Notes: a model not told the origin generated them from the letters alone. A DNA stretch of 64,000 bases from an uncultured Holophagales bacterium (GCA_963842525.1 CAWJGT010000003.1:1-64000); one strand, 5' to 3'. Shown: positions 803 to 19,985, numbered from the stretch's first letter. Numbers and translations are program-made.

Positions 803-1116
803 CCCCGATCAGGGGTGCCGGCGCAGGTGCTAGCCACTTATTCTGGGGCCGGATTGACGCAGACCGGCCGGGTCAGCCGCTCACCGCTGCCGTTAGCCGC
901 CAGCGCTAGGTGCCACCCACTTATTCTGGCCACCCACTTATTCTGGAAAGCCGGGAGGGTGCAGCGGCCCTATCCGCATCTCACTCGCCTGTTTGAGGCG
1001 TACGTGAAAGAGGTGTGACAAGACCCGCCCCCGAGGGAGGATATCCTCGGGGGCTCTTGGTTGTTGGCAGCGTGTACACTTCCCCGATCAGGGGTGCCAG
1101 CCACTTATTCTGTTGG
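803..1116 (+). repeat. Cluster of junction-motif copies (CCGATCAGGGGTGCC / GGTGCCAGCCACTTATTCTG family)
   Basis: Copies at 803-819, 826-846, 909-929, 930-946 (tandem duplicate) and 1082-1116. Confidence 0.85.
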
Positions 1117-1281
1117 GGCGTTAAGATCCCGCCCGCTAGACGCACCAGACTAGGGAGTGGGACTGCGGAAGACCCTCCCTTCTTCCACCCACCCCCGCCG
1201 GGAAAGGCCTCCCTCCCTTTTGATTTCAGGGCTTGGTGGCGCCCTCTCCAGGGTTGCGGGGGGAAGGGGAGGACCGCGCAA

Positions 1282-1629
1282 CTACCCATCGCCGTACTCA
1301 ACGAGATGGACATGAGCTGGTTCACCGGACACGATCGGCACCACTGCCGGGGTCACCAGATCGCCGGGCCACGGAGGCCGCGAGGTGTCGGCGGCGAAGA
1401 TCGCAGAGACGGTCAGATCGGCGGCAGCGCCGGTGTACGGTACTTCGAAGCGCAGCGTCGAGGCCGATGACAAATCGATATCCGTTACGTCGAGAACTAG
1501 TCGGGACACGACCATGGCGCGAACATCTGACTCGGAGGTGTTTTCGACTCGAACCTCTAGCTGTGCCGGGCCGACGGTGCGACCTAAGGCGGGAAGATGC
1601 ACGACGACCTCGACGTGGCGAGCGGTCAT
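1282..1629 (-). CDS. Hypothetical protein, YbaY-like beta-sandwich
   Basis: ATGA overlap with the astacin stop; VRVENTSESD...GDLVT pattern resembles YbaY-type proteins. Confidence 0.5.
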   Translation of the reverse strand: MTARHVEVVVHLPALGRTVGPAQLEVRVENTSESDVRAMVVSRLVLDVTDIDLSSASTLRFEVPYTGAAADLTVSAIFAADTSRPPWPGDLVTPAVVPIVSGEPAHVHLVEYGDG

Positions 1630-2780
1630 CGCTGACGCACCACCACGTAGCGTGCTTCGGCAATGACCGCTTGGTCTGCGAGGTTCGTGATCGTGAAGAA
1701 ATAGTCCAGACCACCGCCGACCGAGCGCCCGGTCTTGTACTCCCAGGAGAGAAGCGGACCTGCGCCAGCCGGGCCATCGGTGCAGATAACATCCCAGTGA
1801 ACAACCATGCTGACGGGCCAACCGCTCGTCACAACCCGCGCCACTTGGCGAGAGGCTATCGTGATGCGGAACTGGGTGCCGTCACCGACGCTGGGAACTA
1901 CGTTGTCGCTCCCGGTCGTGGTAGTGGTCGAATAGAGATAGCGTATGGCGGCAATGTCTCCGTCGCTGACCCCCTCCCGCTGGCCGAACTCCGGATTGGC
2001 CGAGAGCGCCTCTAGCGTCGGCTGGCCGTTGCTGGTGAAAGCGTCCGGCGGGTAGTGCATGATTGACCCGAAGTCGTAAGGGCCCACGTCGTCGCCGTCG
2101 GACACCTGCTGACGAAAATTGTGCTCATACCCTGGTAGAACGTTCTCCCACCGGACGCGCACATAGTTGTCGCGGTCCCTACGGCTCTGCTCATGCCAAA
2201 GCCCCAGCACGTGGCACAGCTCATGGATCGCGTTGCCGACCGTGCAAGTCGGACTTAGACGAACCACTTGCCGTCCGCCTGCCCGCCCTACTCGTGAGCT
2301 GCAGAAGGCTGACACCTCAAAAGCTATGTAGTCGTTTATCCACAGCTCGCGCGGGACGAACTGGACGGGTGTGCGACGAGTTAGACCATCCACGGCAGCA
2401 GCGACGATGCCATGGATCGGCGAGGACGTTGGAACCGACTCGTACGGCACCCGACCCTGTGGCCAGCGCTTCGAGGTGTCCGCAACGACGGCGGCCTGCA
2501 TCTCGCCGGCGGCGGCGGCAAGCACCTGCGCCGCAGTCGCCAGCTCCCCCGGAGTACCTAGCTCGATATCGTCCTCGAAAATCGCTCGACCGTTGACGAC
2601 GCTGAACTCGACCCTTTTCGGTCCGTACCTCCCAAGAGCCACGACACCGATGCCGACTCCTGCCCGCCCGGCCACTACATCGGCCTGCTCCGCAGTGCTG
2701 GCAACACCCACGTCGGAGCTCAGCTCATCCTCTCGCTTGCCGCGGCTTGCGCGACGGGGAACATCTGTGTCGGAACTCAT
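1626..2780 (-). CDS. Astacin (M12A) zinc metalloprotease
   Basis: HELCHVLGLWHEQSRRDRD zinc motif and SIMHY Met-turn; start placed at the ATGA overlap with the upstream gene. Confidence 0.9.
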   Translation of the reverse strand: MSSDTDVPRRASRGKREDELSSDVGVASTAEQADVVAGRAGVGIGVVALGRYGPKRVEFSVVNGRAIFEDDIELGTPGELATAAQVLAAAAGEMQAAVVADTSKRWPQGRVPYESVPTSSPIHGIVAAAVDGLTRRTPVQFVPRELWINDYIAFEVSAFCSSRVGRAGGRQVVRLSPTCTVGNAIHELCHVLGLWHEQSRRDRDNYVRVRWENVLPGYEHNFRQQVSDGDDVGPYDFGSIMHYPPDAFTSNGQPTLEALSANPEFGQREGVSDGDIAAIRYLYSTTTTTGSDNVVPSVGDGTQFRITIASRQVARVVTSGWPVSMVVHWDVICTDGPAGAGPLLSWEYKTGRSVGGGLDYFFTITNLADQAVIAEARYVVVRQR

Positions 2781-3607
2781 CTCGTCTTCCCTTTTGCTGC
2801 GGATTGCGCGACTGCCAGTGCGGTTACCATCATTGGGTGGTACAGCACCAGGAACTGCTCCGGATGGCCGCGCAGTGCCGAGCGCGCAATCGATGCCCAT
2901 TGCGGCATGACAATCCCGGTCCACACCTCTGCCTCTGGCTGCCACTGCCCCGATAGAAACCGAGCGGCAAGAACAAGCTCGACCCCCACGTCGTACCCCC
3001 ACTCGGTACTGGCGAGCTCATCGGCGACCCTTGCAGCTGTCGCCCCTAGCTCGGCGGCCAGCGGGCCCGAGGCGGGCACCGCACCGAAGTCGGTGGCGTA
3101 GAACGCGACGTGCGTCAGTTCGTACAACGACATGACCGAGGCTTCCACCTTGACTGCGCGCAGCGCTGGTAGAGCGGATCCGGTGAGATGTGCTGAGACA
3201 TGGGCAATTTCCTCCGGGCGCCACGGCGGCCCGAGGGCGAAAACCGCCCGTTCCGACTCCACGACAAGGTCAAGGATGTGCTGATCGTGGAGTCTCTGCT
3301 GCTCCATTGCCGGGTCGAGCCAAACACGCGCTGCGTGCAGCGCCCACTCCTCCGGTCCGGGGTTCGCCGCGCCAACTCGCAACGCCGGAGCGGCAAGCAC
3401 GGACCGGACCGCGGCGGCGAGTACCGTCGAGCCGCTCTCCGGGTAATCCCGCTCGAGGATCGAAGCGAAGAGCGCGATATCCGCGAGCGCTGTCAGCCCC
3501 GGCTCGAATCTGGGGTCGTTGGTGAGGAGCGTCAACAGAACTTCTACGTTCCCCGCCAACTCCGTGATGAGTGACTCGGCGAGACAAGCGAGATCCTCTC
3601 CACCCAT
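2777..3607 (-). CDS. DUF6895-like helical protein
   Basis: LYELTHVAFYATDFG and C-terminal YHPMMV motifs recalled from DUF6895-type proteins; coupled to astacin gene. Confidence 0.55.
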   Translation of the reverse strand: MGGEDLACLAESLITELAGNVEVLLTLLTNDPRFEPGLTALADIALFASILERDYPESGSTVLAAAVRSVLAAPALRVGAANPGPEEWALHAARVWLDPAMEQQRLHDQHILDLVVESERAVFALGPPWRPEEIAHVSAHLTGSALPALRAVKVEASVMSLYELTHVAFYATDFGAVPASGPLAAELGATAARVADELASTEWGYDVGVELVLAARFLSGQWQPEAEVWTGIVMPQWASIARSALRGHPEQFLVLYHPMMVTALAVAQSAAKGKTR

Positions 3608-3630
3608 ACCCCACCGCGACGGGCGCGCGA

Positions 3631-4011
3631 CTAGCCAGCTTTGGGCGCACCCCCGCCGGAGACGTATCCGCCACCTTCTCCGAGTGCCTGACTGCCTTCA
3701 AGACCCTGGACCCGCTTGAGGACAGCTGCGGCGTTGCCCAACCGGTTGACCGCGATCCGCTGAAGGTCCCCGGGGCGGAGGGCCGAGGCGTTCGATCCGC
3801 AAGCTACGATTGCCAGCCACGCGGTCGGTGACGTGTTGGGGTTCAGGCCTAGGGTCTGGAGAATCTCACCCCGGTTTAGGGCTCGGCCATCCGGCATCAC
3901 GGCACGAGAGTTCAGAGATGCAATCCTGTTGATCCCGATTCCTACATCGGCCTGGGTGTTGGGATCATTCTCCTCGCTCGTTGCATCGAAGTCGATAAGG
4001 TCGCTGCTCAT
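3631..4011 (-). CDS. Hypothetical 126-aa protein (possible radical SAM substrate)
   Basis: GAAGGAGG RBS; directly downstream of the SPASM gene; single Cys in WLAIVACGSNASAL. Confidence 0.6.
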   Translation of the reverse strand: MSSDLIDFDATSEENDPNTQADVGIGINRIASLNSRAVMPDGRALNRGEILQTLGLNPNTSPTAWLAIVACGSNASALRPGDLQRIAVNRLGNAAAVLKRVQGLEGSQALGEGGGYVSGGGAPKAG

Positions 4012-4056
4012 GGAACGTTCCTCCTTCGATAGTTGGCCCTCGAGAGCCGACTAGGG

Positions 4057-4843
4057 TTAGCTGTAGTTGGCGGCAACGAGGCCTTGCGGCACGCTGCTGC
4101 TGACCGTTTGGCCCAGCCTCCGCAGCAGTGCGGCGGCGGTTTCCCTCAACCCCGAGCGGAACATTGCGTCGAAGTTATCGCAGTACGGCGCCAGCTGCGT
4201 TCCCGTGCTGTAAAGAGCGAACTGCGCGCAACCTCCACCGCACACGAGCGCCATCGGACAGGCCGTACACTCGGGAATGAGTCCGACGTGGCGGGTAAAC
4301 CACTGTGCTGTCTTCGCTCCATCGAGTATCAGCTCGGCCTTGCCGTCGCAGAAGTACGTGCCGATGCGGCTGTCAGCCTTCCCTACTGATTCCCAGCAGC
4401 TGTAGACATACCCGTCGGGAGCGAAGACGTACTGGCCCGTGTTCGCGGTACAGTAGTTTCCCTGAACCGGGACCTGAAGACCCTCCAACAGAGCAGGCAT
4501 CCACTTCGCGCGGATGTTGATGCTTGGCGCATTGAGGTAAAGGTTGGAGTACTGTCTCGCCAGGTGACGAAGCCGCTGGTCCATCTCGTGCAGTGCAATG
4601 TCGGTCGATACCGGTTGACCGGGCGTCATCTTGTAGACCGTGTTTGCGTAGATGAGCAGATCGGGATGGCCGAGCCATCCGTAGCTGCCGAACTCGCCCA
4701 GCAGTTCCTCGAAGTGCTCGAGATTTGTCAAGTCTAGATGGACACGAATCTGGACGAGCGTGTCGCCGCGCTCGAGTAGGCGGTTGACGTTGCCGACCAC
4801 CTTCCGATATGACTTCTCAGTACCGAGCGCGATCCGCCGTCTG
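4057..4843 (-). pseudogene. Radical SAM/SPASM protein, 5'-truncated
   Basis: SPASM cysteines (YCTA...DGYVYSCW...CTACPMALVCGGGC...YC) are present; the N-terminal CxxxCxxC motif is absent and similarity stops near 4843. Confidence 0.8.
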
Positions 4844-5040
4844 AGTACCACCAGAACTATAAGTGCCAACCGAATCTTGGACCTGCCATTGGACACCTCA
4901 CATCGAAGGAGGAGTCTAAGCCTTCGGGGAGTAGGTGCGGCGGATAAGGTGCGCGAGGAATAGGTGCCTGAGGCTTCTTGGGGAGCCTTGGAGTATATGA
5001 GGTCTGCGGGGCCTGCGGTCACAGAGTACCAGCCAGCAGA

Positions 5041-5061
5041 GGTGCCAGACACTTATTCTGG
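5041..5061 (+). repeat. Junction motif copy GGTGCCAGACACTTATTCTGG
   Basis: One mismatch to the consensus; abuts the stop codon of the duplicated kinase fragment. Confidence 0.85.
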
Positions 5062-5064
5062 CAG

Positions 5065-5671
5065 CTACCCGTCGCCCTCCCGCAGGGTCTTGAGCACTGC
5101 CCGCAGGGTGTCCAAGGTGATGGGCTTGGCCAGGAAGCCGTCCATGCCCGCCGCCTCGCAGGCCTCCCGGTCGGCGGCGAAGGCGTTGGCGGTCAGGGCC
5201 ACCAGGCGCAGGCGTCTGCCGCCGCCGGCCGCCTCCCGGGCGCGGATGGCGCGGGCCGCGGCCAGCCCGTCCAGCACCGGCATGTAGATGTCGAGCAGCA
5301 CCAGGTCGTAGGCCGCGCGGGCGGTGGCCTCGACCGCCTCCACCCCGTTCTCCACGCACTCCACGGCGATCCCCAGGTGCTGCAGCATGGCCTGGACCAC
5401 CTCCCGGTTCACCTCGCTGTCCTCGGCCACCAGGACCCGCCGGCGGCTCAGGACGGCTCCGGGCTGCGATCTCGGCGGGCTCGGCGAGACGGGCGGGACC
5501 GACGCGGCCGGGGCCGCAGCGTCCTCGGCCGCGGGCTCGGAGACGAGCGGCAGTCGGACCGTGAAGGTGCTGCCGCAGCCCGGGGAAGCTCGCCACCGCG
5601 ATCGTCCCGTCCATGGCCTCCAGCAGGCGGGCGGTGATCGCCAAGCCCAGACCCGTGCCGCCGAAGCGCCG
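5065..5671 (-). pseudogene. Partial diverged duplicate of the 3' end (HATPase end + REC) of the MHYT hybrid kinase
   Basis: Near-identical to 7223-7828 with scattered substitutions and a 1-nt indel near 5590; no start codon region. Confidence 0.9.
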
Positions 5672-5701
5672 ATCAGGGGTGCCAGCCACTTATTCTGTTG
5701 G
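5669..5701 (+). repeat. Junction motif copy CCGATCAGGGGTGCCAGCCACTTATTCTGTTGG
   Basis: 33 nt identical to 1084-1116; sits between two gene fragments. Confidence 0.9.
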
Positions 5702-6163
5702 TACAACCTGCTCGGCTGCCTTCTGTTGGCAGGACGGCATCCTGAGGCGGAGCAGCTTCTACCCGAGGTCGAAGGACTCTTCGGAGCTTTGGGCCAACCT
5801 CTCGACCTCGTACGCCTGAGTTGGGCTCGGGCCAACATCGCCTTCGGTCTGGGAGACCTCCGAGCAGCAGAGGAGATCTTCGACCAGGTCCGGCAGGAGT
5901 TCGCCGCCCGCGGCATGGCGTACGACGCCGCTGTGGTCTGCCTCGACCTCTCGCTGCTCTACCACCAGGAAGGCCGCACCGCGGAGTTGAAGCAACTGAC
6001 AGGAGAGTTGGTGACGATCTTCGAAGGGCAGGAGATCCACCGCGAGGCGATCGGGGCTTTCTACCTCTTCCAGAAGGCCTCGCTGGAGGAGCGCCTCACC
6101 GTGGACATCATCACGCGGCTGGCCGACGTGCTGCGGAGGTATCGGCCGGGGAATGGGGTGTAG
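5702..6163 (+). pseudogene. C-terminal fragment of a TPR-like helical protein
   Basis: YDAAVVCLDLSLLYHQEGRTAELKQL...IHREAIGAF helical-repeat C-terminus; begins abruptly at the junction motif. Confidence 0.65.
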
Positions 6164-6217
6164 GGTATCGAAGCTGGGACGAGCGACTTTGGCTGGGGGT
6201 GATACCATCAAGGAACT

Positions 6218-6481
6218 ATGTTGAAGACGATCGAAGGCATCTACAGGGAAGGCAAAGTCGAGCTTGCCGAGCGGCCAGAAGGCGTAGGGGATGAGGTGCC
6301 GGTCCTCGTGACGTTCCTTCCACCGCACCGGATCGACCTCAGGGCGCAGGGAATCGACGAGATGCAGGCAGCCAACCTGCGGGCCCGCCTGAAGATCTTC
6401 GCCGCCGACTGGGATGACGCGGAGATGGGCATCTATGACGACGACTACGACACCGCCAAGGCCAAGCTGCAAGCGAGGTGA
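6218..6481 (+). CDS. Putative antitoxin (AF2212/DUF104-like N-terminus)
   Basis: MLKTIEGIYREGKVELAERP N-terminus and acidic WDDAEMGIYD tail; overlaps a PemK/MazF 5' fragment. Confidence 0.65.
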   Translation: MLKTIEGIYREGKVELAERPEGVGDEVPVLVTFLPPHRIDLRAQGIDEMQAANLRARLKIFAADWDDAEMGIYDDDYDTAKAKLQAR

Positions 6482-6540
6482 CGTCGCTCTCGCGCTTTTT
6501 CCCGATTCTAACCTGCGAACTGCCAAGCTCCGCCCTGTAC
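6435..6540 (+). pseudogene. PemK/MazF toxin N-terminal fragment
   Basis: KRGDVALALFPDSNLRTAKLRPV is a typical MazF N-terminus; similarity is lost after about 6540. Confidence 0.7.
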
Positions 6541-6604
6541 CGCGGCAGCAGGGGCACTTGTCGTTCTGTACGACTCTAGGGCCGCCCCGGGAAGGGAATT
6601 CGGC

Positions 6605-6633
6605 TTGACAATGCCACTTAATGTAGCTACAGT
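6605..6633 (+). promoter_or_regulatory. Sigma70-type promoter of brnTA with palindromic operator
   Basis: TTGACA (6605-6610), 17 bp, TACAGT (6628-6633); palindrome TGTAGCTACA (6622-6631) overlaps the -10. Confidence 0.7.
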
Positions 6634-6638
6634 AATCC

Positions 6639-6908
6639 ATGCGGGTTGAGTTCGATCCTGCCAAGGACGAGGTCAACCTAGCCAAGCACGGTGTGTCCTT
6701 GGCGCTGGCGAGGCAGCTTGATTGGGACGCTGCGCTCGTATGGGTGGACGATCGGTTTGCCTATAACGAGGTGCGCATGATCGCTCTCGCTCCCGCGGCA
6801 AACACGCTGTACTACGTGGCCTTTGTTGATCGTGGTGAGACTCTAAGGATTATCAGCCTTCGCCGAGCCGAACGTCGTGAGGTGAAGTATTATGTCGAAA
6901 GCCTCTAA
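6639..6908 (+). CDS. brnT: BrnT family toxin
   Basis: FDPAKDEVNLAKHGVSL...RIISLRRA signature. Confidence 0.9.
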   Translation: MRVEFDPAKDEVNLAKHGVSLALARQLDWDAALVWVDDRFAYNEVRMIALAPAANTLYYVAFVDRGETLRIISLRRAERREVKYYVESL

Positions 6909-7191: not shown

Positions 7192-7222
7192 GGCGCTCAG
7201 TTAGTCCGCCGGTCGTCGCCGG

Positions 7223-9181
7223 CTACCCATCGCCCTCCGGCAGGGTCTTGAGCACCGCCCGCAGGGTGTCCAAGGTGATGGGCTTGGCCAGGAAGCCGTC
7301 CATGCCCGCCGCCTCGCAGGCCTCCCGGTCGGCGGCGAAGGCGTTGGCGGTCAGGGCCACCAGGCGCAGGCGTCTGCCGCCGCCGGCCGCCTCCCGGGCG
7401 CGGATGGCGCGGGCCGCGGCCAGCCCGTCCAGCACCGGCATATAGATGTCGAGCAGCACCAGGTCGTAGGCCGCGTGGGCGGTGGCCTCGACCGCCTCCA
7501 TCCCGTCCTCCACGCACTCCACGGTGGTCCCCAGGTGCTTCAGCATGGCCTGGACCACCTCCCGGTTCACCGGGCTGTCCTCGGCCACCAGGACCCGCCG
7601 GCGGCTCGGGACGGCTCCGGGCTGCGATCTCGGTGGGCTCGGCGAGACGGGCGGGAGCGATGCGGCCGGGGCCGCAGCGTCCTCGGCCGCGGGCTCGGAG
7701 GCGAGCGGCAGTCGGACCGTGAAGGTGCTGCCGCAGCCCGGGGCGGTCGCCACCGCGATCGTCCCGTCCATGGCCTCCAGCAGGCGGGCGGTGATCGCCA
7801 GGCCCAGACCCGTGCCGCCGAAGCGCCGGGTCGTCGAGGCATCGCCCTGGGTGAAGGGCTGGAACAGGCGGGCGCGCTGGGCCTCATCCATGCCGATCCC
7901 GGTATCGCGGACCGCGATGGCGAGGCGCCCCTCTCCGTCGGCGCTGGCGATGACTCTGATGGTGCCGCCGGGGGAGAACTTCAGTGCGTTGGAGACCAGG
8001 TTCAAGAGCACTTGGCGCACCCGTATGGGATCGGCCAGCACCCGGCGCGGCACCGTCTCGGGCCAGTCCAGGACCAGCGCCCCTCCCCGCTCGCCGACCT
8101 GGGAGCGGTACAGGGCCAAGGTGTCGGCCGCGGCGGCCCGGGCGTCGACCGGCAGCCGCTCCACCTCCAGGCGGCCGGCCTCGATCTTGGCCCAGTCCAG
8201 GATGTCATTGAGGATCGCGAGGAGCGTCTGGCCGGAACGCCGGATGGTCTCGGCCTGGTCGCGCTGCTCGGGCGCCAAGGGACCCGAGGCCAGGAGGTCG
8301 GCCATGCCGATCACCCCGTTCAAGGGGGTGCGGATCTCGTGGCTCATGGCGGCCAGGAACTCGGACTTGGCCCGGTTCGCCCGCACCGCCTCGTCGTGCT
8401 TCGTCACCAACTCGGCGGTGCGGCGGTCCACGAGCGTGGCGGCGATGGCAACCGCGATGATCACCGAGGTGACGACGGCGATCACGACGGCCATCCATCG
8501 CGGCTCGAACACGACCCTCGGGGACCCCATGCTGCCGGGGTAGAAGCGGACGGCATGCATGGCGGTGTAGTGCATGCAGGCCACGGCGCAGCCCATGGCG
8601 CCGGCGCCGGCCACCTGGCGGAGGAAGGGGAGAGTGGCGCCGCCGGGGAAGAACTTGATGTAGAGGGCGAGGGTGGCGAGCACGTGAGCGACGAAGATCG
8701 ACAGGGCGAACAGGAGGGGCGCGTACCCCATCATGGCGTCCATGCGCATCGCTTCCATGCCGGTGTAGTGCATGCCCCCGATCCCCAATGCCATGAGCAG
8801 GCCGCCGACATTGAGCCGCCACCATGAGATCCTGGCGCGGTCCATGAAATAGAGCGCCATGGCGCTCGCGAACACAGCGGGAACCATCGAGAGGAGGGTG
8901 ATCGTGAGGTCGTAGCTGACCGGAATCGGCAACGAGAAGGCGAGCATGCCGATGAAGTGCATGGACCAGATGCCCGAACCCATGGCGGCGGCACCGGCGG
9001 CCAGCCACCGGCGACGGATTTGTGGCGATGGCGCGCTCGCCATCCGTTCGACGACCTCGAGGGCGGCGTAGCCGCCCAGCGCGGCCACGAAGAAGGACAG
9101 CGCCACCAGGAACGGGGCGTGGGCCGCAGAAAGCTCCTGGCCCAGGTCGGCGTTGGGGGCGATGAACCTCCAGAAGAGCAT
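7223..9181 (-). CDS. MHYT-domain hybrid sensor histidine kinase (MHYT-HisKA-HATPase-REC)
   Basis: MHFIGM/MHYTGM/MHYTAM repeats, [11 protein letters not shown]-box, NALKF, DTGIG, GGTGLGL, C-terminal receiver. Confidence 0.95.
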
Positions 9182-9370
9182 ATCGGTTCCTGCGACTGAG
9201 AAAGCGAACCTATTCTACAGCGCGCGGCTCACCGGGGCGATAGGGGCCTCTTCTTCTGGGGAGGACATCATCACCAGCTACAATGCGGCTGGCGCCTTGG
9301 GTGCGTGATTCAGGGCACTCGGTCCTGCTTCACGCCAACACCGGCAACATCATCTTGCACATCATCAAGC

Positions 9371-9580
9371 GGCCTTGTCGTAACGGGGGCTTTGAGACGC
9401 CCTGAACGCGGTGGTATCCACAAGCGCGGTGGTCGCGGACTAGTCGGAGCCTGCCTTCGGCGACCCAGGGTGATGAAAACAGGCTCCGGCGCCACCCTAC
9501 CCGCCGCCCATTTTCGTCTTAGGGCGTCTCTACGCGGGACGAAATATGATTGGGCGTGACATTCACCCGTTCGATGCCTG
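9371..9580 (-). repeat. GTAG-type palindromic (REP-like) element, copy 1
   Basis: Inverted repeat GAGACGCCCT (9394-9403) / AGGGCGTCTC (9521-9530) followed by TAC; homologous to 20662-20793. Confidence 0.8.
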
Positions 9581-9626
9581 AGGCACGTCGCCAGGCTGTC
9601 CGCTTGCTCTTGTTCCGCCTTCCTAT

Positions 9627-9674
9627 GTGGTGACCAGGGTGCCCCCGGATGGGTGCCAGCCACTTATTCTGGGG
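9627..9674 (+). repeat. Composite junction motif GTGGTGACCAGGGTGCC-CGGATGGGTGCCAGCCACTTATTCTGG
   Basis: Sub-parts recur at 12004-12020, 17152-17164 and in the other motif copies. Confidence 0.8.
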
Positions 9675-10074
9675 CCCCCTTGCGACTCGGCTGGCCCCGT
9701 CGCAGGCTCCACAGCCCGCGCGCCGAGAGGATGACGGACAACATCCCGCTCGCGCCAAGCGCGATGTTCGTCCAGACCCAGAAGAGGGCGCCGCTGGAGT
9801 TGGCGGCGATCCGGCCGCCGATAAGTCCCCGACCCTGCATGTGGAGGACAGGGACGCCAGATGCAAGGATCGCCCCGAGCAGAATGAGGACCAGCCCCAA
9901 TCGCCGCTCGGCGAGCACCAGCGTTCCGCAAAGCCAGACTGCCAGGATGAGCAGGCCCCCAAAGGCAGAGATGGTTCCCGGCTCGATCCCTCGGGCGACT
10001 TCGTCCGCCCAGTGCAGTGAGAAGAAGAGGATCGAGAGCAGAGACGTGACGGTCAAGATGACGTTGTTTTTCAT
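9664..10074 (-). CDS. Small membrane protein (about 4 TM helices)
   Basis: Four hydrophobic segments; downstream of the LytTR system; TAA stop lies inside the junction motif. Confidence 0.7.
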   Translation of the reverse strand: MKNNVILTVTSLLSILFFSLHWADEVARGIEPGTISAFGGLLILAVWLCGTLVLAERRLGLVLILLGAILASGVPVLHMQGRGLIGGRIAANSSGALFWVWTNIALGASGMLSVILSARGLWSLRRGQPSRKGAPE

Positions 10075-10153
10075 GTGCGCCAGTATCGCGGCAGGCGTGC
10101 CGCGCCAACAACCAGATTGCGACGAAGGGCGGATTCGCGCGGACGAACGGGGG

Positions 10154-11977: not shown

Positions 11978-11993
11978 TGCGGCCGAGGATACC

Positions 11994-13984
11994 TTATGTG
12001 GCAGTGGTGACCAGGGTGCCGCTGGCAATGACCCGCAGCAGCTCGTCGATCTCGACGGGCTTGACCAGGTGGTGGTCGATGCCGCTTTTGCGCGAGCGCT
12101 CGCGGGCTTGCTCGTCGCCGAAGCCGGACACGGCGATGATCAGCGGGTGGCGGCCAGCGGGCCGGCACCGGAGCCGGGCGGCGACCTCGTATCCTGTGAT
12201 ATCCGGAAGGTCGAGGTCGAGAAGGATGGCGTCGAAGGGCTCCTCGCTCGCTGCCGCCAGCGCCTCGCCGCCGCAGGTGACCGATCGCGCCTGGCAGCAG
12301 CGAAGGTTCAGCAGCTCGGTGAGCGCCGTCGCCGCGTTGACGTTGTCGTCGACGACCAGGATGCGCCGCGCTGCCAACGAAGGGGCCGCGGTGCTTTCGG
12401 CGGGCACTTCCGGAGCCGCCTCCGCGGCGAGCGGCAGCCGGATGGTGAAGGTGCTGCCTCGGCCCAGCCCTTCGCTACGGGCCACCGCCGAGCCCCCGTG
12501 CAGCTCGGCGAGCTGCCGGACCAGGGTCAGCCCGATGCCGAGGCCGCCGGCCATGTGTCCGCTGTCTCCATGCCGGGCCTGGATGAAGGGCTCGAAGATC
12601 CGCTCGATCATCTGGGGATCGATGCCGAAGCCGTGATCGCTCACCTCGATGACCGCCACCTCCGCCTCGCTGCGCACCTCGAGGCGGATCTCCGTTCCCC
12701 GGTCGGAGTACTTGGACGCATTGCCCAGCAGGTTGGCGAGCACCTGTTCGATGCGCCGCGGGTCGGCATCAACGTGCAGGGGCTCGCCGGGCAGAGAGAA
12801 GATCAGGTGCTGCTCGGAGTCGGCCAGTCGCGCGGCGGTCGATGCGGCGGCTGCCTCTACGAGTTGAGCCAGCGGGACCACCCGCCGCCGCAGCTCGAGC
12901 TTGCCGCGCGCGATGCTCGAGACGTCGAGCAGGTCGTCAAGCAGGCCGGTGAGCTGCCGCACCTGGTTGCGCATCATGGCCAGCGCCCATTGTTCCCGAT
13001 CGGCGCCGGCCCCCCCTTCGAGCAGGCGCAGCCCGCCGTCGATGCCGGCGAGTGGGTTGCGGAGCTCATGGCCGAGCACAGCCATGAACTGGTCCTTGCG
13101 GCGCTCCTCCTCGCGCAACCGCTCCATGGTCTGCTCCAATGCCCTTCGCGTCGCCACCTGCTCGGTGACGTCGTGTGCGAAACACAGGACGCCGTCGACC
13201 CGTCCGTCCTGGCGGAGGGGTGCCCAGGTGACGTCGATGCTGCGCCAGGCGCCCTCCTCCTCGCCCCGCGCGCCGGCGAGCGACAGCTCGAGCTCGGGAC
13301 TGGCACCGCTCACCCCATCCTGGAACGCGCTTTCGAAGGCCTCGAGGAAGCCCTGGCCCCGGAGCTCCCGGAGAGTCTCGGCGAGCGGCCGGCCGAGCAG
13401 CTCGCGCCTCCCGACCAGCTCAGTCGCGCGCGGGTTGGCGAAGACGCAGACGTGATCCGGCCCGTGGGTGGGTCAACACCGCCGCGGGGGCGCGCTCCAG
13501 GACCTCCTGCCGCCGCCGCCGCTCTTTCTCGCTCTCTTCTCGCGCGGTGCGCTCGCGCCACAGGCGGCGCGCCGCGTCCTCGGCTTCCCGGCGGCCGGTG
13601 ATGTCGCGCAGCGAAGCCAGGCAGGCGCTACGTCCGTCCCACAGCAGGTCGACGACACGCATCTCGGCCACACGGCCGCCGGGCAGGTCGAGCTCGGTGG
13701 TCTCCCCCGAAACCACCGGAAACCCGAAGGGGCAGCCGAGGAGCTCCTCGCGCCGCCGGCCGAACAAGGCCTCGGCGGCGGAGTTGGCGAACCGCACTGT
13801 GCCCTCGGAGTCGACGACGACGATCGCATCACCGATCCCCTCGATGATCCGCTCGCGTTCGGCGTTGTGCCATGCGATCTGCGCATTGACCTCGCGGAGC
13901 TGCGCGTTGGCTTCCTGCAGCTCCGACTCGAACAACGCCCGGAAATCGGGCGTTGGAACCGCAACTTTTTTTCTTTCGGACCAT
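11994..13984 (-). CDS. PAS-domain hybrid histidine kinase (HisKA-HATPase-REC), several frameshifts
   Basis: GHELRNPLA, NASKYS, GGLGIGL and receiver in 11994-13313; PAS segments upstream in other frames; probable ATG at 13984 next to a T7 run. Confidence 0.75.
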
Positions 13985-15570
13985 GGCCGCTCATCGGGTG
14001 CGTTCTTTCCCGGACTCACCGCCGGTGCACCCAGCTCTCTGCAGGCGCCGTGCCAGACTCGTTCCTGCGGGAAGAGGCCCTCCAGCCGTGCCAGCTCTTC
14101 GCGCGAATGCACGGGATTGCCGCTCAAGATGCCGCTCACCGAGCGGAAGGGCTCGCCGAGATGCATCCCGGTCGCGTCGATGGTCACCTGCCGGATCTCC
14201 TTGTCGTGCGGCGAGCCGCGCATCTTGAGCACCATCAGGCCGCGCTGCATCTCGCCGAACATCTCGACATACCGCAGCAGGATGATCGAATCCGTCAGGC
14301 TCGAGATGTGGGCTTCGGTCACCGACGTACCGCCCACCAGGGTGGGCGTGGTGTTGGTGAACAAGCCGGTAATCGAATTCTGCTTGATGAACGACGTGAG
14401 GTCGATCACCATCTGCCGAAACGCCTTGGGCGGCCCGACCCGCTCGAGCGCCGAGAGCGAGTCGATGACCACGCGCTGCGGCGCGAGCTCCTCGATCATC
14501 CGCTTGATGCGCAGCAGGTGGTCCTGCAGCCCGCGCGCCTCCGGATACTCGCAGTGGACCCGCAACACGCCGTCGCGCTCCATGCTCTCGAAATCGACTC
14601 CCCAACCGGCGGCATTGCGCACCAGTTGCTCGCGGCTCTCCTCGTAGCCGAACAGCAACCCGCGGTCTCCCTGTGCGGCCCCGCCGGCGAGGAAGTGGGT
14701 GACTGTCAGCGTCTTGCCGGTTCCGGTGGCCCCGGAGACCAGGATCACGGAATCCCGGAAGAAGCCACCGCCGCACATTGCGTCGAGCTCGGGATTGCCG
14801 GAGGTGACGCGGAGGTTCGACGAATGCTGCTCGAGCGGGATGCCGGTGAGCGGGATCACCACCAGGCCGCGGTCGGCCTCGATCACAAACGGGTGCTCGC
14901 CCTTCTGGTGATCCGTGCCGCGGAACTTGAGGAGCTCCAGCGTGCGCCGCCTCTGCTCGTCTTCGAGCACGTTGCGGAGCACCACGACATTGTCGGCGAT
15001 GAATTCCTCCACGCCGTAACGGCCGACCGGACCGTACTCTTCCGTCCGCTCGGCGGTGAGCACCGCCGTGACCTCCATTTCGCGGGCGGCGCGGGCGATG
15101 CGGAACAGCTCGTTGCGCACCACGGACGCGTCCTGGAACTGCGAAAAAACGGCAGAGAGCGAGTCGACCACCAGACGCCGCGCGCCCGTGCGGTCGACCG
15201 CGTTCTTGATCCGTGCCATCACGCCGCCCAGGTCATATTCACCGGCCTCGATCATCTCCTCCTCGGGATTGGGCGAAGCGTCGACGAAGGCCCACTTCCC
15301 GTCCTCTTCCCAGGCGGACAGATCCCAGCCGAAGCTCGCGACGTTCCGGCGGATGTCGTCGGGGCTCTCTTCGAACGTGACGAAGACCCCGTGCTCGCCG
15401 AGCTCGGTGATGCCGCGGGCGAGGAACTGCGCGGCAAAAATGGTCTTGCCGCTTCCCGAGCTGCCGGAGATCAATGTCGAACGATTGGCAGGCAGGCCAC
15501 CGTAGGTGAGACGGTCGAAACCGGGAATGCCGGTCAACACCTTGGCCGGTGGGAGCGCCCGCGTGCTCAT
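13420..15570 (-). CDS. kaiC: Circadian clock protein KaiC (KaiC similarity ends near 14060; ORF reads on into a PAS domain)
   Basis: Two RecA-like domains with GSSGSGKT and GATGTGKT Walker A, FEE/YEE, HISSLTDSIILLRYVE, KMRGS; GAGGAGG RBS. Confidence 0.95.
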   Translation of the reverse strand: MSTRALPPAKVLTGIPGFDRLTYGGLPANRSTLISGSSGSGKTIFAAQFLARGITELGEHGVFVTFEESPDDIRRNVASFGWDLSAWEEDGKWAFVDASPNPEEEMIEAGEYDLGGVMARIKNAVDRTGARRLVVDSLSAVFSQFQDASVVRNELFRIARAAREMEVTAVLTAERTEEYGPVGRYGVEEFIADNVVVLRNVLEDEQRRRTLELLKFRGTDHQKGEHPFVIEADRGLVVIPLTGIPLEQHSSNLRVTSGNPELDAMCGGGFFRDSVILVSGATGTGKTLTVTHFLAGGAAQGDRGLLFGYEESREQLVRNAAGWGVDFESMERDGVLRVHCEYPEARGLQDHLLRIKRMIEELAPQRVVIDSLSALERVGPPKAFRQMVIDLTSFIKQNSITGLFTNTTPTLVGGTSVTEAHISSLTDSIILLRYVEMFGEMQRGLMVLKMRGSPHDKEIRQVTIDATGMHLGEPFRSVSGILSGNPVHSREELARLEGLFPQERVWHGACRELGAPAVSPGKNAPDERPWSERKKVAVPTPDFRALFESELQEANAQLREVNAQIAWHNAERERIIEGIGDAIVVVDSEGTVRFANSAAEALFGRRREELLGCPFGFPVVSGETTELDLPGGRVAEMRVVDLLWDGRSACLASLRDITGRREAEDAARRLWRERTAREESEKERRRRQEVLERAPAAVLTHPRAGSRLRLRQPARD

Positions 15571-15583
15571 GGATTCCTCCTCG

Positions 15584-15886
15584 TCACTGGTCCTCCTCCT
15601 GCGCACGTTCGTCGCGGGGTCGCACATCGAGGCCCAACAACACCTTGTCGCGGTTGGACAGGTCCCCGATCACCCGTCGCAGCGGTGGCGGCAACTGTTT
15701 GATCAGCGTCGGCGTGGCCAGGATGCGATCGTCCTCGGCCAGTTGCGGGTGTTCGAGGACGTCGATGATCTCGAGCTCATAGCATCCCTCGAGCTCCTCC
15801 TTGCAGAGGCGCCGGAGGTTGGCGATGGCGCGCTCGGCTCGCGGCGATCGGCCGGTGACGTAGAGCTTCAGCAGATATCGTTCCAG
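15584..15886 (-). CDS. kaiB: Circadian clock protein KaiB (CTG start; missing from ORF track)
   Basis: Manual translation [23 protein letters not shown]...[33 protein letters not shown]; AAGGAAGGA RBS before CTG. Confidence 0.92.
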
Positions 15887-16716
15887 GTCGTCCTTCCTTT
15901 CTCCAGCCAGCGGTCGCGATAGACGGTGACCAGATGCCCCATGAGCTCAAGCAGCCGCACGCGACCTTCCGCCAGGTAGAGCTTCATGCGCTGCGGTCCC
16001 TGCTCAGCTTCCCGCTGCTTCATGACGGTGGCATGCAGCTCGACAATATCGCGAGGCCCGGCGCGCAGCTCGGCCGCTGCGCTGGCCAGCTTCTGCAGTT
16101 GATGCTCGAGCACCACCGGCCGGCGCTGCAGGATCTGCTCCACGGCGCGGTCGAGGATCTCTCCGTAGTCGCGCGTCAATTCGGCGAAGCGCTCGGGGAA
16201 GGCGGCCCGTAGCGGCGCCGGGCGGCTGCTCGCTCCGTCGCCGAGCGAGGCCGGCCACTCCGCCTGATGCCTGGCCAGCACCTCCCGCATGCGCGCCACT
16301 TCCACCGCGTGGCGTAACGAACGGGCGGCGAGGGTGCCGTAGAGCCGCTCCGCAACCAGGTAGTCGCTGGCGCCGAGCTGCACGGCTTTAGCGGCCAGCG
16401 GCTCGTCCCCGGCCGCGCAGAGCACGACGACGGGCAGCGCGGGAGCTTCCGCACGGATGGTCACCAGAGGCCCGAGCCCCTGGCCGGGCGGCGAGATCGG
16501 CAGCAGCACGATGTCGATGTCCCTGGCAGTGAGCTTTTCGAGGGTCTCCGCCAGGCCGGAGGCGCGTGCGAGCTCGAACCGTGCGCGCTCCGGCGAGCCT
16601 TCGAGCGCCGCCGCGAGCTGGGATGTCACCTTCCCATCCGCGTCGACGACGAGCACGCGGAGGGATTCGCCCGTGTCCAGGGGAGCGGCCGCGGTGCTTC
16701 CGTCGAGCTGATCCAT
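15868..16716 (-). CDS. KaiA3-like protein (pseudo-receiver + KaiA-like C-terminal helical domain)
   Basis: Receiver fold lacking the phospho-Asp ([10 protein letters not shown]); C-terminal [10 protein letters not shown]...[18 protein letters not shown]; directly upstream of kaiB. Confidence 0.7.
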
Positions 16717-16733
16717 GACGGGCGTGGCGTTCT

Positions 16734-17117
16734 TCAGGGTTTCTCCACCAGGCGTTCCACCTCCTCGACGAACCGCGAGGGTGAAACGGGTTTGACCAGG
16801 TAGCCGGAGCAGCCGAGATCCCGCGCTCGCTGGCGGTCTTCGTCGAGCGCATGGCCGGTCACCAGCAGCACCGGCACCTCGCGCGTGCGCTCGTCGAGCT
16901 TGAGGCGCCGCGTCATCTCCCAGCCATCGACGCCAGGGATCGAGATGTCAATGACTGCCACGCATGGAAGAGCGCTGTCGACCATCCGCAACGCCTGTTC
17001 GCCGTCGCCGGCTTCGTGCACGCTCCAACCGGCGTGCTCCAGCAGCGCCCGGTATGCAAGCCGGGTCTCCGCATCGTCCTCGACGAGCAGGACCGGCCCT
17101 CGTGCTCCGCTGCCCAT
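16734..17117 (-). CDS. Single-domain response regulator (DivK/CheY-like)
   Basis: LLVEDD...IDISIPGVDG...VTGHA...YLVKP. Confidence 0.9.
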   Translation of the reverse strand: MGSGARGPVLLVEDDAETRLAYRALLEHAGWSVHEAGDGEQALRMVDSALPCVAVIDISIPGVDGWEMTRRLKLDERTREVPVLLVTGHALDEDRQRARDLGCSGYLVKPVSPSRFVEEVERLVEKP

Positions 17118-17151
17118 GGCACGTCCTCCCGGAGGCGGAGTGTAGCATCAG

Positions 17152-17203
17152 CGGATGGGTGCCACCATGCGGCCCTTCTACGCGGGACGAAATGTGATAG
17201 GGC
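17152..17203 (+). repeat. Junction composed of CGGATGGGTGCCA plus a partial GTAG element
   Basis: 17152-17164 matches 9647-9659; 17178-17203 matches 20743-20768. Confidence 0.75.
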
Positions 17204-17285
17204 GCTGGCCGCGTTCGCAAGATTGTGAACAAAAGAACGCCAATCCCGCGGGGGATGGCGAACAGCACGATGGCCGCAGCCGGAA

Positions 17286-18455
17286 CTACGGGCCGCTGGC
17301 GAGGGGGATCGTCAATCTCCACATGTCGTTGAGCAGCACCGGCGCGAACTCCGCGGTCGCTCCCCCGAAGATGTAGAGCTCGTAGGCGGTGGCGGTCTTG
17401 CGGGAGAAGTAGAACTGGCCGAACCTCGGAGCCGGCGCGGGCCCCGTCATCGCGGTGTCCACGCGCGTCCAGGTCCCGGCGTGGAGATCGAAGTACCAGA
17501 CATCGGACAGGGTGGTACCGTCGAACTTGCTGCCACCGAAGAGCCAGATGCGGTCGTTGTGCTCATCGGCGATCAGCTTCGCGTTGTCGCGGTGGCCCGG
17601 TCCGCCGGCCTCGTCGAAGGCGATCTGATCCCAGGTCTCCGTGTGGATGTCGAACATCCAGAGGTCGCCGAGGTAGTTCTCCGGCGTGAACAGACCGGTG
17701 CCGTTCACGGCGTCGTTCGTGTATCCGCCATAGACGATCAGGGCGTTCCAGCCCTCGGAGTAGACGAGCGGATGATGGGCTCGAGCGCGCGGGGCGGGCG
17801 AGCCGGTCGAGACCTGCTTCCAGCCGTTCTTGTAGCGGACCAGGTTGTGCTGGAGGCCGTCCGGACGGTTGATGAAGGCCGGCAGCGTCGACGACGAGCC
17901 CGAGAAGGCGTACACGACGGTCTTCTGCTTCCCTTTCTTTCGCACGGCGACCGCTTCCGTGGAGCGGTTGGCGCGCCCGATTTCAGCCGCGCTCTGCGAG
18001 ATCTCCGTCCACCCGTGCACCGGATCGAACCGGAACGTGTCCTGGTGCGTGAGGTCGAGCCCGCGCCGGAAAGGACCTCTCCCGCCGGAGACGATCAGTG
18101 CGTCGTCTTCGGCGATGCACCACATCATCGACTCGGCCCTGGCGGACGGCCCGCCCGGGTATTGGCCGGGTTGGCCGAGGTCGTACCAGGTCAGCGTGTC
18201 GACGTCGAAGACGCTGAAATCGGCCACGGGCTCGTCGTTCGGGAAGGTCCCGTTCAACCCGCCGAAAATGTAGAAGAGGCCCTCATGATAGGCGCTCGCA
18301 CCGTCCCAGAGCGCGTCGGGGACGGCGCCGCCCTGCGGAATCTCGGTCCAGTATGGCAAGCCCGGCTGGGCGACGCTCCGGCGGATCCCGGCGAACGAGA
18401 GCAAGAGTGCGAGAGAAGCGATGAGAACGATCCGACGCTGAACCCTGCGTGTCAT
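17286..18455 (-). CDS. Secreted Kelch-repeat beta-propeller protein
   Basis: Signal peptide; repeated YIFGG/VYGG/LFGG...DxW Kelch motifs; AAGGAGG RBS. Confidence 0.85.
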   Translation of the reverse strand: MTRRVQRRIVLIASLALLLSFAGIRRSVAQPGLPYWTEIPQGGAVPDALWDGASAYHEGLFYIFGGLNGTFPNDEPVADFSVFDVDTLTWYDLGQPGQYPGGPSARAESMMWCIAEDDALIVSGGRGPFRRGLDLTHQDTFRFDPVHGWTEISQSAAEIGRANRSTEAVAVRKKGKQKTVVYAFSGSSSTLPAFINRPDGLQHNLVRYKNGWKQVSTGSPAPRARAHHPLVYSEGWNALIVYGGYTNDAVNGTGLFTPENYLGDLWMFDIHTETWDQIAFDEAGGPGHRDNAKLIADEHNDRIWLFGGSKFDGTTLSDVWYFDLHAGTWTRVDTAMTGPAPAPRFGQFYFSRKTATAYELYIFGGATAEFAPVLLNDMWRLTIPLASGP

Positions 18456-18696
18456 CCGGCTACCTCCTTGTTTCAGGAAAAGGCGGGCTCGCCCCCGGTG
18501 CATCGCGAGCGTACACGCGCGGGGATCAGCACGCAACGCAGCCGTTCCCAGCATAAGGGCTCGGCACAAAATAAGTGTCTAATTTCGGCTCTTCAACGCG
18601 GCCTTCCAGCGAGCTGACAAGGTCTGTCCTGGGACCCCAGACCCGTGTCGTGTCATCCTGAGCGTAGCGAAGGATCTGGGGGCAGGGAGGCTGCAC

Positions 18697-19100
18697 GCCG
18701 CGGGACCACTGCGAGCCACCGCAGTGAGCGTCCATGGTCCTGTGGTGGCTCCCGCCGGTGCCGCGGGACCACCGGGAGCCACCGCAGTGAGCGTCCATGG
18801 TCCCGTGGTGGCTCCTGCCGGTGCCGCGGGACCACCGGGAGCCACCGCAGTGAGCGTCCATGGTCCCGTGGTGGCTCCTGCCGGTGCCGCGGGACCACCG
18901 GGAGCCACCGCAGGGAACGTCCATGGTCCCGTGGTGGCTCCCGCCGGTCCCGCGGGACCACTGCGAGGCACCGCAGGGAACGTCCATGGTCCCGTGGTGG
19001 CTCCTGCCGGTGCCGCGGGACCACTGCGAGCCACCGCAGGGAACGTCCATGGTCCCGTGGTGGCTCCTGCCGGTGCCGCGGGACCACTGGGAGCCACCGC
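18697..19100. repeat. 63-bp tandem repeat, about 6.4 copies, internally palindromic
   Basis: Units start at 18697, 18760, 18823, 18886, 18949, 19012, 19075; each holds GGGACCA/TGGTCCC and GAGCCACC/GGTGGCTC inverted pairs. Confidence 0.95.
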
Positions 19101-19325
19101 TGGCACCACTTGAGACTCGCGATAGAGTTGAGACAGTAATTTGTGATGAACCCTAAAGATCCGCAACGCCGTGCGCATCCTGTCTAGGGTGGAGATTTTG
19201 GGAAGCTCGGCATCCACCCTAGAGAGGAGGGCGGCGGCGTAAAAATCATCGCTAGAGAGGATAGACGCGGTGGCCGGCGGGGACTAACCTGCGGATGTAC
19301 GAAGCCCTGGAGAAAAGGAGACTCT

Positions 19326-19877
19326 ATGCATTCCAAAAGTCGCGGAGCGCGCACGGGACTGGCTCTGGTGTTGGCGTTGGCAACGGCAGGGATCACCGAT
19401 GTTGCGACAGCTCAGGAGCCCGTCGTGGGCGCCACCTGCGCCGGCTCGTTGACCATGAGCTTTTCCCCGCCGGTGGCCTTTCTCCTGCCGCCGGCGCAGG
19501 GGCCGTTCACCGTCGTCACCGGCACCGGTTCGCTCACCACCTGCGTGGCGCTCGACGACGGTCCCACCACCGGCACGTTCGCGTACCAGGTGTCGGGCCA
19601 CCTGACGTGCACCTCGGCCGGGACCGCCACCGGCACGCTTGATATCGTGTGGGCGGACGACAGCGAGAGCCATGTCGAGCTCACGAACCTGTTGCTCGGC
19701 TTCACCAGCGCCGCAGGGGCCGCAGGGCTGACCGGCACCGTGACCAGCGGCCGCTTCGCCGGGGATCAGCTTCAGGTCGTCAATGTGCGCAATCCCGTGG
19801 CGTATCTCCACTGCGTGCTCACCGGGCTTTCGCAGACCACCGGGACGCCTACCCTGATCTTCACTCACCTGGAGTGA
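19326..19877 (+). CDS. Secreted hypothetical beta-rich protein
   Basis: AAGGAG RBS, signal peptide (ATA-Q), 4 Cys, Thr/Gly-rich. Confidence 0.7.
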   Translation: MHSKSRGARTGLALVLALATAGITDVATAQEPVVGATCAGSLTMSFSPPVAFLLPPAQGPFTVVTGTGSLTTCVALDDGPTTGTFAYQVSGHLTCTSAGTATGTLDIVWADDSESHVELTNLLLGFTSAAGAAGLTGTVTSGRFAGDQLQVVNVRNPVAYLHCVLTGLSQTTGTPTLIFTHLE

Positions 19878-19985
19878 GAGCGGGCCGGCAGCACGGAGCC
19901 CAGGGCATCGGCCTGCGGCCTCAGCCCTGAGCTCTTGCGAGTAATCGGCTGGAACCTAATCTGGCACCTTATCTGGGGGGGCCGG

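Follow-up and report, generated by a model that had tools for sequence, protein, structure and literature searches.

What does a short DNA sequence do that recurs, in one orientation, at the borders of truncated and duplicated genes? The question is raised by the genome of an uncultured Holophagales bacterium (assembly of 9.95 Mb, 68% G+C, 34 contigs), specifically by the first 64 kb of its contig C3 (GCA_963842525.1 CAWJGT010000003.1:1-64000), which together form the window analysed here. A first-pass annotation of this DNA had taken the recurring motif for the joint of an integron-like array that captures foreign DNA, a view it had set against the motif being the end of a known insertion sequence. 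An end is what the motif most probably is, of the published but little-studied TIRYT/TIRtron kind of transposable element, and the segments traced beside it in the window are pieces of local genes, not whole cassettes. Specifically, we propose, with a probability of roughly 65%, that the motif is a stand-alone terminal repeat of about 22 bp from TIRYT-type elements that is recognised and nicked in trans, and that repair at these sites would give rise to small duplications and to copies of nearby gene fragments.

The motif is the 20-mer GGTGCCAGCCACTTATTCTG; a form with either G or C at one position is AGGTGCCAG(G/C)CACTTATTCTGG. It occurs at 826, 909, 1093, 5041, 5678 and 9652 with zero or one mismatch, all six copies lying on the + strand, as the first-pass annotation had seen; the expected number in the shuffled window is 0.00. 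Its origin is indicated by a family of multi-copy elements, 1.2-1.6 kb long, at whose two ends stand inverted repeats with (A/G)GTGCCA(G/C)C as their tip. One sequence related to the motif terminates a repeat of about 185 nt, a piece of which lies inverted at 4958-5021 in the window, and comparison of copies shows this repeat to be the right end of an element at least 1.55 kb long. Between element copies, homology begins at TTGAGGTGCCAG and halts exactly at CAGGCACCTATTC. Both in copies from this genome and in elements from the order, the left end pairs with the right end, taken as its reverse complement, over about 15-25 nt; the inner part of this terminal repeat is specific to each subfamily while the tip is kept, and most of the 30 order elements examined show such ends. 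The motif shares their features: tip (AGGTGCCAGCC) and tail (TTCTGG) both agree with the terminal inverted repeats, with an 11-nt tip and a 6-nt tail identical to ends in relatives (compare the element ends AAGTGCCAGCCGATTCTGG, GGGTGCCAGCCGATTCTGA and AGGTGCCAGCCGAATATTTCTG with the window motif AGGTGCCAGCCACTTATTCTGG), and its right half resembles the right-end tip of element family A, GGCACCTATTC, from which it differs by one base. The motif also varies in its tail (for instance TCTTC, TTTTC, TGTTC), in parallel with the right-end tips of the different element subfamilies, and a profile search with the motif copies returns related short sequences that have AGGTGCCA in common. Element ends very often stand in tandem, two to four times. 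No element-like sequence lies directly beyond the motif copies of the window, which are solo ends.

The elements encode an HUH/Y1 transposase of 306-317 amino acids, with an N-H-Y-H motif in the 317-residue protein. A tblastn search of the genome finds two intact copies on contig C19, 91% identical to each other, and others that are intact, frame-shifted or fragmentary. A second transposase subfamily is present at C3:735 kb, C9:1081 kb and C33:35 kb, together with about a dozen fragments, and transposase genes lie in both orientations. Across 26 homologues from the order, H62, H64 and Y123 are invariant and the consensus around the tyrosine is RLxYxLSHGxKEGLV. An AlphaFold model (pLDDT 82.9) contains an extra C-terminal helical region and has as its best fold match in the PDB 4er8_A, a RAYT bound to REP (E 2.8e-6, TM 0.70 on target), followed by the transposases of ISDra2, IS608 and IS200; phmmer against the PDB sequences gave no match, so relatives there are found only by fold search. 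Relatives are plentiful among proteins at large, with at least 1814 at E<=1e-10 when the best 8000 candidates are scored, many of them named 'REP element-mobilizing transposase RayT' or 'transposase' and several from records labelled Thermoanaerobaculia. Within the order, 106 of 151 genomes (one of them, G161, unpublished) have transposase matches, with at least 16 in one genome among the matches listed. The guess in the first-pass annotation that a trans-acting HUH/Y1 enzyme of RAYT-like type is involved is thus supported, since two intact genes and about a dozen broken ones lie elsewhere in the genome and the element ends share tip and tail with the motif. An alternative identity for the 185-nt right-end region, the guide-RNA end of a TnpB/IscB element, was dropped because the gene upstream of it encodes the Y1 transposase.

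How far does the motif extend beyond the window? The genome holds 16 copies at up to three mismatches, 15 of them on the + strand. Of 300 genomes of the order, 43 contain an 18-mer of the motif at up to one mismatch and none contains the reversed control, and the commonest form in relatives, GGTGCCAGGCACTTATTC, is a near-palindrome, GGTGCC-A-GGCAC, followed by TTATTC. An exact-record search of a species collection returned 34 records, about 21 of them Acidobacteriota and mostly labelled Thermoanaerobaculia; the roughly 13 outside Acidobacteriota were set aside as being at about chance level for 596 Gb. Other genomes also carry motif arrays with 21-33-nt spacing, as well as tandem copies. No Rfam family matches at the motif, be it in the window (1-22 kb, E<=0.1), in nine loci of relatives or in eight loci of this genome. 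The motif in general forms no stable hairpin: its fold energies of -1.6 to -2.6 kcal/mol are no better than those of shuffles (two of the three copies folded, + strand), GTAG is missing, and only the copy at 5041 folds well, owing to its own flank. A REP-like stable hairpin is thereby rejected, and the motif is like a terminal inverted repeat rather than like REP. Two further identities failed: a tRNA-type attachment site, as no tRNA or tmRNA adjoins the motif copies of relatives, and a sigma-70 or sigma-54 promoter, judged by eye and not by a scan, on wrong hexamer spacing and a missing -12 element. A copy in a relative that had seemed to adjoin a transposase gene (L003/L093) actually lies inside an unrelated coding region.

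The window provides the clearest view of what stands beside the solo ends. A frame-shifted copy of the 3' part of a kinase gene (5064-5671, - strand, 96.5% identity) begins at the stop codon, only 3 nt past the motif at 5041-5060 (+ strand, one mismatch), and ends at a 33-nt unit (5669-5701, + strand) that holds the motif at 5678-5697. Its source is the last 607 nt (7222-7828) of an intact gene for an MHYT-HisKA-HATPase-receiver hybrid kinase (7223-9181, - strand). The same 33-nt unit bridges this fragment and the next, a copy of the upstream neighbourhood at 5701-6538 (+ strand) that comprises the C-terminus of a TPR gene (to 6167), a small frame (6200-6481) and the first bases of a MazF-like gene. 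The stretches 5700-6167 and 6200-6538 are 93-95% copies of C33:1563-1096 and 476-141 and start 3 nt past the motif at 5678-5697. As such, the motif does stand at both ends of the kinase fragment and at the start of the TPR fragment, as had been annotated. Since the equivalents of 6197-6538 and 3-146 are adjacent in relatives and a MazF-like frame runs across the junction of reversed C33 with C3, contig C33 appears to abut the start of the window, which places the source of the TPR fragment only about 6-7 kb upstream, across the contig break. That of the kinase fragment lies about 1.5 kb downstream. The break itself was probably caused by the duplicate, of 95% identity, at 6200-6538. Those fragments of the window that could be traced are copied from neighbouring genes and not from foreign DNA. 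The 3' end of the kinase gene (7220-7601) recurs at 93% identity in another genome of the genus, where it also abuts an end of the element family.

Is this proximity more than local coincidence? When a junction is counted wherever a duplicate of at least 40 bp and at least 85% identity has an edge within -8 to +25 nt of a site, 6 of the 16 motif sites qualify, compared with 25 of 600 random sites (Fisher p 5.6e-5); the random sites were drawn without restriction to variable or intergenic DNA, so that the enrichment may in part be regional. Counted by locus, a duplicate edge is present at five of nine motif loci, and the edges lie 13-18 nt to the right of the palindrome centre. At C3:662.5 kb, a partial motif (…TGGCACTTATTCGGG) and a transposase remnant enclose 248 nt copied from a nearby gene end; the source is 20 nt from the motif cluster at C3:661655, which itself lies about 0.9 kb from a truncated element. 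The motif at C22:46215 lies within a patchwork of 44-488-nt pieces from C1 and C3, and those on C12 and at C9:198075 stand beside local duplicates. The general claim of the first-pass annotation, that copies sit at breakpoints, is thus partly right: it has support in this genome, at 6/16 versus 25/600, and none of three motif loci tested in three other genomes shows it.

The palindrome itself offers a second line of evidence. A scan of 84 distinct motif instances for exact tandem duplications (period 8-40, within 70 nt) found 15, of which 11, as counted, have an edge within 3 nt of the centre: seven start at -1 to +2 and four end at -5 to +1 from the centre of GGTGCC-A-GGCAC (binomial p 9e-9 against a 10% chance). 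Two further duplications are anchored at the centre of a neighbouring copy. This anchoring points to the palindrome centre as the site where DNA would be broken and rejoined, as far as sequence can tell. Orientation adds a hint: cumulative GC skew is monotone on C3 and C9, and the motif lies on the G-rich strand at contig scale in all 8 informative loci (p 0.008), a weak bias, seen at eight loci, two of which have a local 50-kb skew of opposite sign.

These observations are compatible with a model in which transposases supplied in trans, the most likely source being the intact pair of family-A copies on C19, bind solo ends and would nick them at the palindrome centre. Repair of the break by short re-copying would produce the tandem duplications, and sometimes repair would instead copy nearby DNA about 13-18 nt to the right of the centre, leaving fragments of neighbouring genes beside the motif. 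The orientation on the G-rich strand would fit an enzyme that acts on one exposed strand during replication. A more far-reaching version, which we regard as tentative, holds that GGTGCC-A-GGCAC(TTATTC) may be where an uncharacterised branch of Y1 enzymes cleaves and joins DNA, that breaks made at this place may be mended with copies of nearby DNA, and that solo ends may seed the capture and reshuffling of gene fragments; equally tentatively, and by analogy, such seeding might be likened to a bacterial Y1 counterpart of fragment capture by Helitrons or Pack-MULEs.

Several points weigh against the proposal of nicked solo ends. No element end in this genome or among the 30 elements examined from relatives is identical to the full 22-nt motif, and of the roughly nine motif loci in the genome only two have an element remnant nearby. 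One of the six counted junctions, C3:132288, had to be discarded as an element: its 490-bp 'duplicate' consists of a paralogous promoter and gene, and, starting at the promoter of a gene family, probably reflects ordinary paralogy and not rearrangement. The fragment-junction pattern is absent at the three loci (0/3) in other genomes mentioned above. The transposase matches existing profiles below their curated cut-offs (NCBIfam REP_Tyr_transpos, E 3.6e-10 and 39.9 bits with a cut-off of 80; Pfam Y1_Tnp, E 0.003 and 18.2 bits with a cut-off of 23), and its tyrosine motif, Y-x-L-S-H-G, is without the Y---NP that is given as the signature of RAYT class 2 (PMC6006769). The accessible TIRYT/TIRtron literature yielded no biochemistry for the family, and papers under other names are possible; because of this, nicking at the centre is something we infer. 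The sequence would fit both a palindrome that belongs to the element and one that is its preferred insertion target.

The latter possibility is the strongest rival, in our view an unlikely one. It holds that the palindrome is an att-like target at whose centre the elements insert, so that their tips are the split halves of the target and solo motifs are empty or vacated sites. Such a target would explain why the left arm is found at left ends of elements and the right arm at right ends, and why subfamilies keep the tip but vary in the inner repeat; outside their tips, the two intact C19 copies have asymmetric flanks, which an asymmetric target would predict, and the centre-anchored tandem duplications resemble footprints of insertion followed by excision. 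Against it, inverted symmetry extends 4-6 nt outside the arms in several elements (GAATAGGTGCC/GGCACCTATTC and GAAGAGGTGCC/GGCACCTCTTC), which fits a repeat owned by the element or else a fully palindromic target. Nor was any pair of occupied and empty sites found, as the flanks tested had no match, either for the C19 element in five same-genus genomes or for an element of another genus in 41 genomes, and the model leaves the spread of the target copies themselves unexplained.

It is improbable, by comparison, that motif and fragments have no causal link, with relics of ends and segmental duplications merely accumulating in a dispensable, fast-changing region and their edges coinciding by chance. 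The first 22 kb do have the look of such a region, with toxin-antitoxin pairs, truncated genes and dispersed repeats and without synteny to same-genus genomes: comparison of 1-20 kb with five of them gave scattered blocks only, so that breakpoints cannot be placed by orthology. The three loci in other genomes, none of which abuts a duplicate, would also suit this reading. It has difficulty with edges that fall a few bases from the motif at independent loci (the window, C3:661655/662512, C12 and C22), with the excess over random sites, and with the kinase 3' fragment of 93% identity that abuts a family end in a second genome of the genus.

The integron-like system from which the question started, with a recombinase that would join foreign DNA to the motif as it comes in and so assemble a cassette array, is now very improbable. 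It would account for copies in one orientation between unrelated segments, and the kinase block at 7219-9236, 95% identical to a block of another species with unrelated flanks, could be taken for such an arrival. The segments that could be traced are, however, local duplicates and gene fragments in place of whole foreign cassettes, the motif of 20-33 nt has no stable hairpin, and it matches the ends of transposons. No integrase or IntI was found among the 36 reading frames (26 + 10) of 1-22 kb, the part of the genome scanned for IntI, in keeping with the earlier remark that no recombinase is encoded here. 

Sequencing data bear on the remaining rival. Contigs of a public run, which looks independent but may be the source sample, match 830-1112, 4614-4942 and 6424-6593 without a single difference and support the junctions within these stretches, although the best run leaves 5011-5678 uncovered, including the kinase-fragment junctions, a gap that also counts against the proposal, and no public run contained half of the query's words. 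That the joins are chimeric, or that adapter remained at the contig start, is least credible of all: the cluster does lie in the first 10 kb of C3, beside a break probably caused by a 95% duplicate and partly outside public coverage, but the copies vary by point changes, occur mid-contig elsewhere and in 42 other genomes, are backed by the identical contigs, and match no adapter sequence that we know of.

How do these elements compare with known systems? The name TIRYT/TIRtron dates from 2013, when it was given to RAYT-like genes with terminal inverted repeats on either side (Di Nocera et al. 2013, PMC3733652), whose repeats are also dispersed as single, dimeric or grouped copies and among which a sharply defined Acidobacteria group was reported (PMC3733652). 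Quentin et al. 2018 treat the same set (PMC6006769), and a GGGGWSAS motif occurs in most TIRYT repeats without strictly defining them (PMC3733652, PMC6006769). Measured against these descriptions as far as they were available, the elements here agree in having a RAYT-like HUH/Y1 gene with terminal inverted repeats instead of REP hairpins, and in repeats dispersed away from the gene, here as 16 motif copies. They differ in their tip (AGGTGCCA; (A/G)GTGCCA(G/C)C across elements) in place of GGGGWSAS, and in being strongly multi-copy (at least 16 in one genome among the matches listed). The near-palindromic solo copies, the duplications anchored at the centre and the gene fragments at the edges go beyond the available descriptions.

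The RAYT/REP/REPIN systems share with these elements the closest solved fold (4ER8), a Y1 enzyme that acts in trans together with short dispersed repeats, and repeats that flank the transposase gene in inverted orientation. In contrast to them, no stable hairpin tagged with GTAG is found here, the repeats number 16 per genome rather than hundreds, the transposase is multi-copy and not a single-copy, vertically inherited gene, its motif is YxLSHG and not Y---NP, and the protein has double the length and an additional helical region at its C-terminus. IS200/IS605 elements have subterminal hairpins, no terminal inverted repeats, a 4-5-nt target and a transposase of 130-150 residues. The HUH/Y1 catalytic fold of IS608 and ISDra2 is the same as here, and the bias of the solo copies to the G-rich strand recalls the link of these elements to the lagging-strand template; the inverted repeats and the protein of 306-317 residues set the present elements apart. 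ISCR/IS91 and Helitrons use two-tyrosine enzymes and rolling-circle read-through, with a helicase in Helitrons. The present elements work like them without being members, in that the end of an HUH element abuts pieces of host genes copied from elsewhere; the enzyme here is Y1, and the fragments are short and mostly local. Integron attC sites are imperfect palindromes of 57-141 nt that bound whole promoterless genes, with an IntI tyrosine recombinase adjacent. Short, site-like repeats in one orientation between unrelated segments are common to both, whereas the units here are 20-33 nt long, fold weakly and border gene fragments.

Within the window, end-like sequences are concentrated at the start. 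The tip pattern RGTGCCASVC has 316 matches in the genome, which corresponds to 0.7 expected per 22 kb, and seven were seen in the first 22 kb (five + strand motif copies, one family-B end on the - strand near 181 and one weak match at 21548), with none in the remaining 42 kb. That family-B end, at 174-191 (- strand), is a solo end of TIRYT subfamily B with the sequence AAGTGCCAGCCGAACAG, identical to the left ends of the elements at C3:735 kb and C9:1081 kb, and its orientation is opposite to that of the other copies. At 802-845 (+ strand), a half tip, CCCCCGATCAGGGGTGCC, precedes the motif copy GGTGCTAGCCACTTATTCTG (826-845, one mismatch), which is followed by 60 nt of filler (846-905, + strand) that resembles C33:791-731, the intergenic repeat region of the upstream neighbour, at 82%. 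The next copy (909-928, within 909-946, + strand) is followed by a 17-nt tandem duplication of its right part (929-946), a partial copy at the place where the first-pass annotation had listed one at 930. The 33-nt unit at 1084-1116 (+ strand), composed of CCGATCAGG, the motif and TTGG, is indeed 100% identical to 5669-5701.

A further group of relics lies around a radical-SAM/SPASM maturase gene (4057-4842, - strand), which is truncated at its 5' side and retains profile positions of about 213-410 out of 440. The annotation had assigned this truncation to the motif: an end of the family does adjoin it, namely the solo end of a subfamily-B-like element at 4861-4880 (+ strand, AAGTGCCAACCGAATCTTGG), and not the motif at 5041. 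The opposite-strand variant noted near 4851-4869 is in reality this same-strand end of another subfamily. Two degenerate tips (4930-4957) and an inverted family-A right end with 60 nt of interior (4958-5021) follow (4930-5021, + strand), and all relics within 4861-5062 (the B-like end, both tips, the family-A right end and the motif at 5041) point in one orientation. Most of the looser variants listed farther along dissolve on inspection: that at 11985-12020 is the coding 3' end of a kinase gene with only 18 nt in common with the flank of 9652, that at 17152 is only a tip, GGGTGCCACC, and that at 18568 is only an 11-nt partial match on the other strand. At 19951-19980 (+ strand) a right half is present, in degenerate form, as CTGGCACCTTATCTGG. 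No copies border the LytTR or kai modules.

The motif may also affect reading frames. The exact copy at 9652-9671 (+ strand) overlaps the 3' end of a membrane-protein gene on the opposite strand (9664-10074), supplying its last two codons and its stop codon, and relatives match this gene from 9693 onward only. On the opposite strand, the motif reads TAA and then a GTG start, TAA-GTG-GCT-GGC-ACC (for example at 5689-5675 and 9663-9652). Frames of at least 106 codons open from that GTG at 7 of the 16 copies, one of them in frame with the kinase fragment; in a genome of 68% G+C such frames may be due to chance. In the far-reaching version given above, this arrangement might let the motif cap a truncated gene, as at 9664-10074, or restart a captured fragment, as in the in-frame kinase fragment.

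Other features of these loci deserve a record. The MazF-like toxin frame at the contig break (window 1-250 and locus L018 on C33, 1-520) has one internal stop and follows a small antitoxin-like reading frame. Downstream of the TPR gene, the spacer (L018, about 500-1095) contains two degenerate runs of 21-22-nt tandem repeats, of the types CGGACAG...CGTAGGT and GAGTTAAGGCTTA, and is missing from the duplicate at 6167-6200. The kinase block at 7219-9236 has its 95% counterpart in another species of the genus (G004:C390), with both flanks unrelated and its left limit at the stop codon, where identity elsewhere in the query between these genomes is typically 65-88%; judged by these identities, recent transfer of the kinase gene or mobility as a unit is suggested. 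A dispersed repeat of about 75 nt (9371-9443, 9520-9579 and 20662-20792) is present twice in the window, at 93% and 88%, and at more than 15 other places in the genome, and a 63-bp tandem repeat array (18554-19103), with a 21-residue periodicity in open frames, belongs to a family found on at least ten contigs at 85-94% identity. At 13420-15627, a KaiC homologue with a PAS-containing C-terminal extension precedes receiver-domain genes, a kai-type signalling cluster that is unusual and unlinked to the motif.

Beyond the window, at least five copies of ATAGGTGCCACCCATTAGAAGGCTCTTGTCAACG (C9:189634, 243513 and 853810; C3:337230 and 1291376), one adjoining an N-terminal transposase fragment, probably stem from the end of a further subfamily or a deletion derivative. 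In another genome, G126, a motif copy has, at a distance of 120 nt, a 187-bp palindromic, MITE-like repeat (L127, G126:C1, 1640-1826) that is self-matching in both orientations, and this complete genome contains dozens of copies of the repeat. The only Rfam matches in loci of the present genome are two Acido-Lenti-1 RNAs, unrelated to the motif, at 3585-3630 and 3739-3784 of locus L016 (C3:1290000-1296000); they score 46.8 and 45.9 bits (gathering score 37), lie on opposite strands about 110 nt apart and, with the record titles, fit an Acidobacteriota origin.

What would the solo ends mean for the family and its hosts? For annotation, the motif accounts for several truncated and chimeric reading frames in this region. 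For the TIRYT family, the sequence comparisons lead to a prediction, that the enzyme would recognise the palindromic tip and probably nick it at the central base. Solo ends further appear to be preferred places for small duplications and, in this genome at least, for planted copies of pieces from neighbouring genes. If this is true, these elements would be a source of gene-fragment shuffling in large, soil Acidobacteriota-type genomes.

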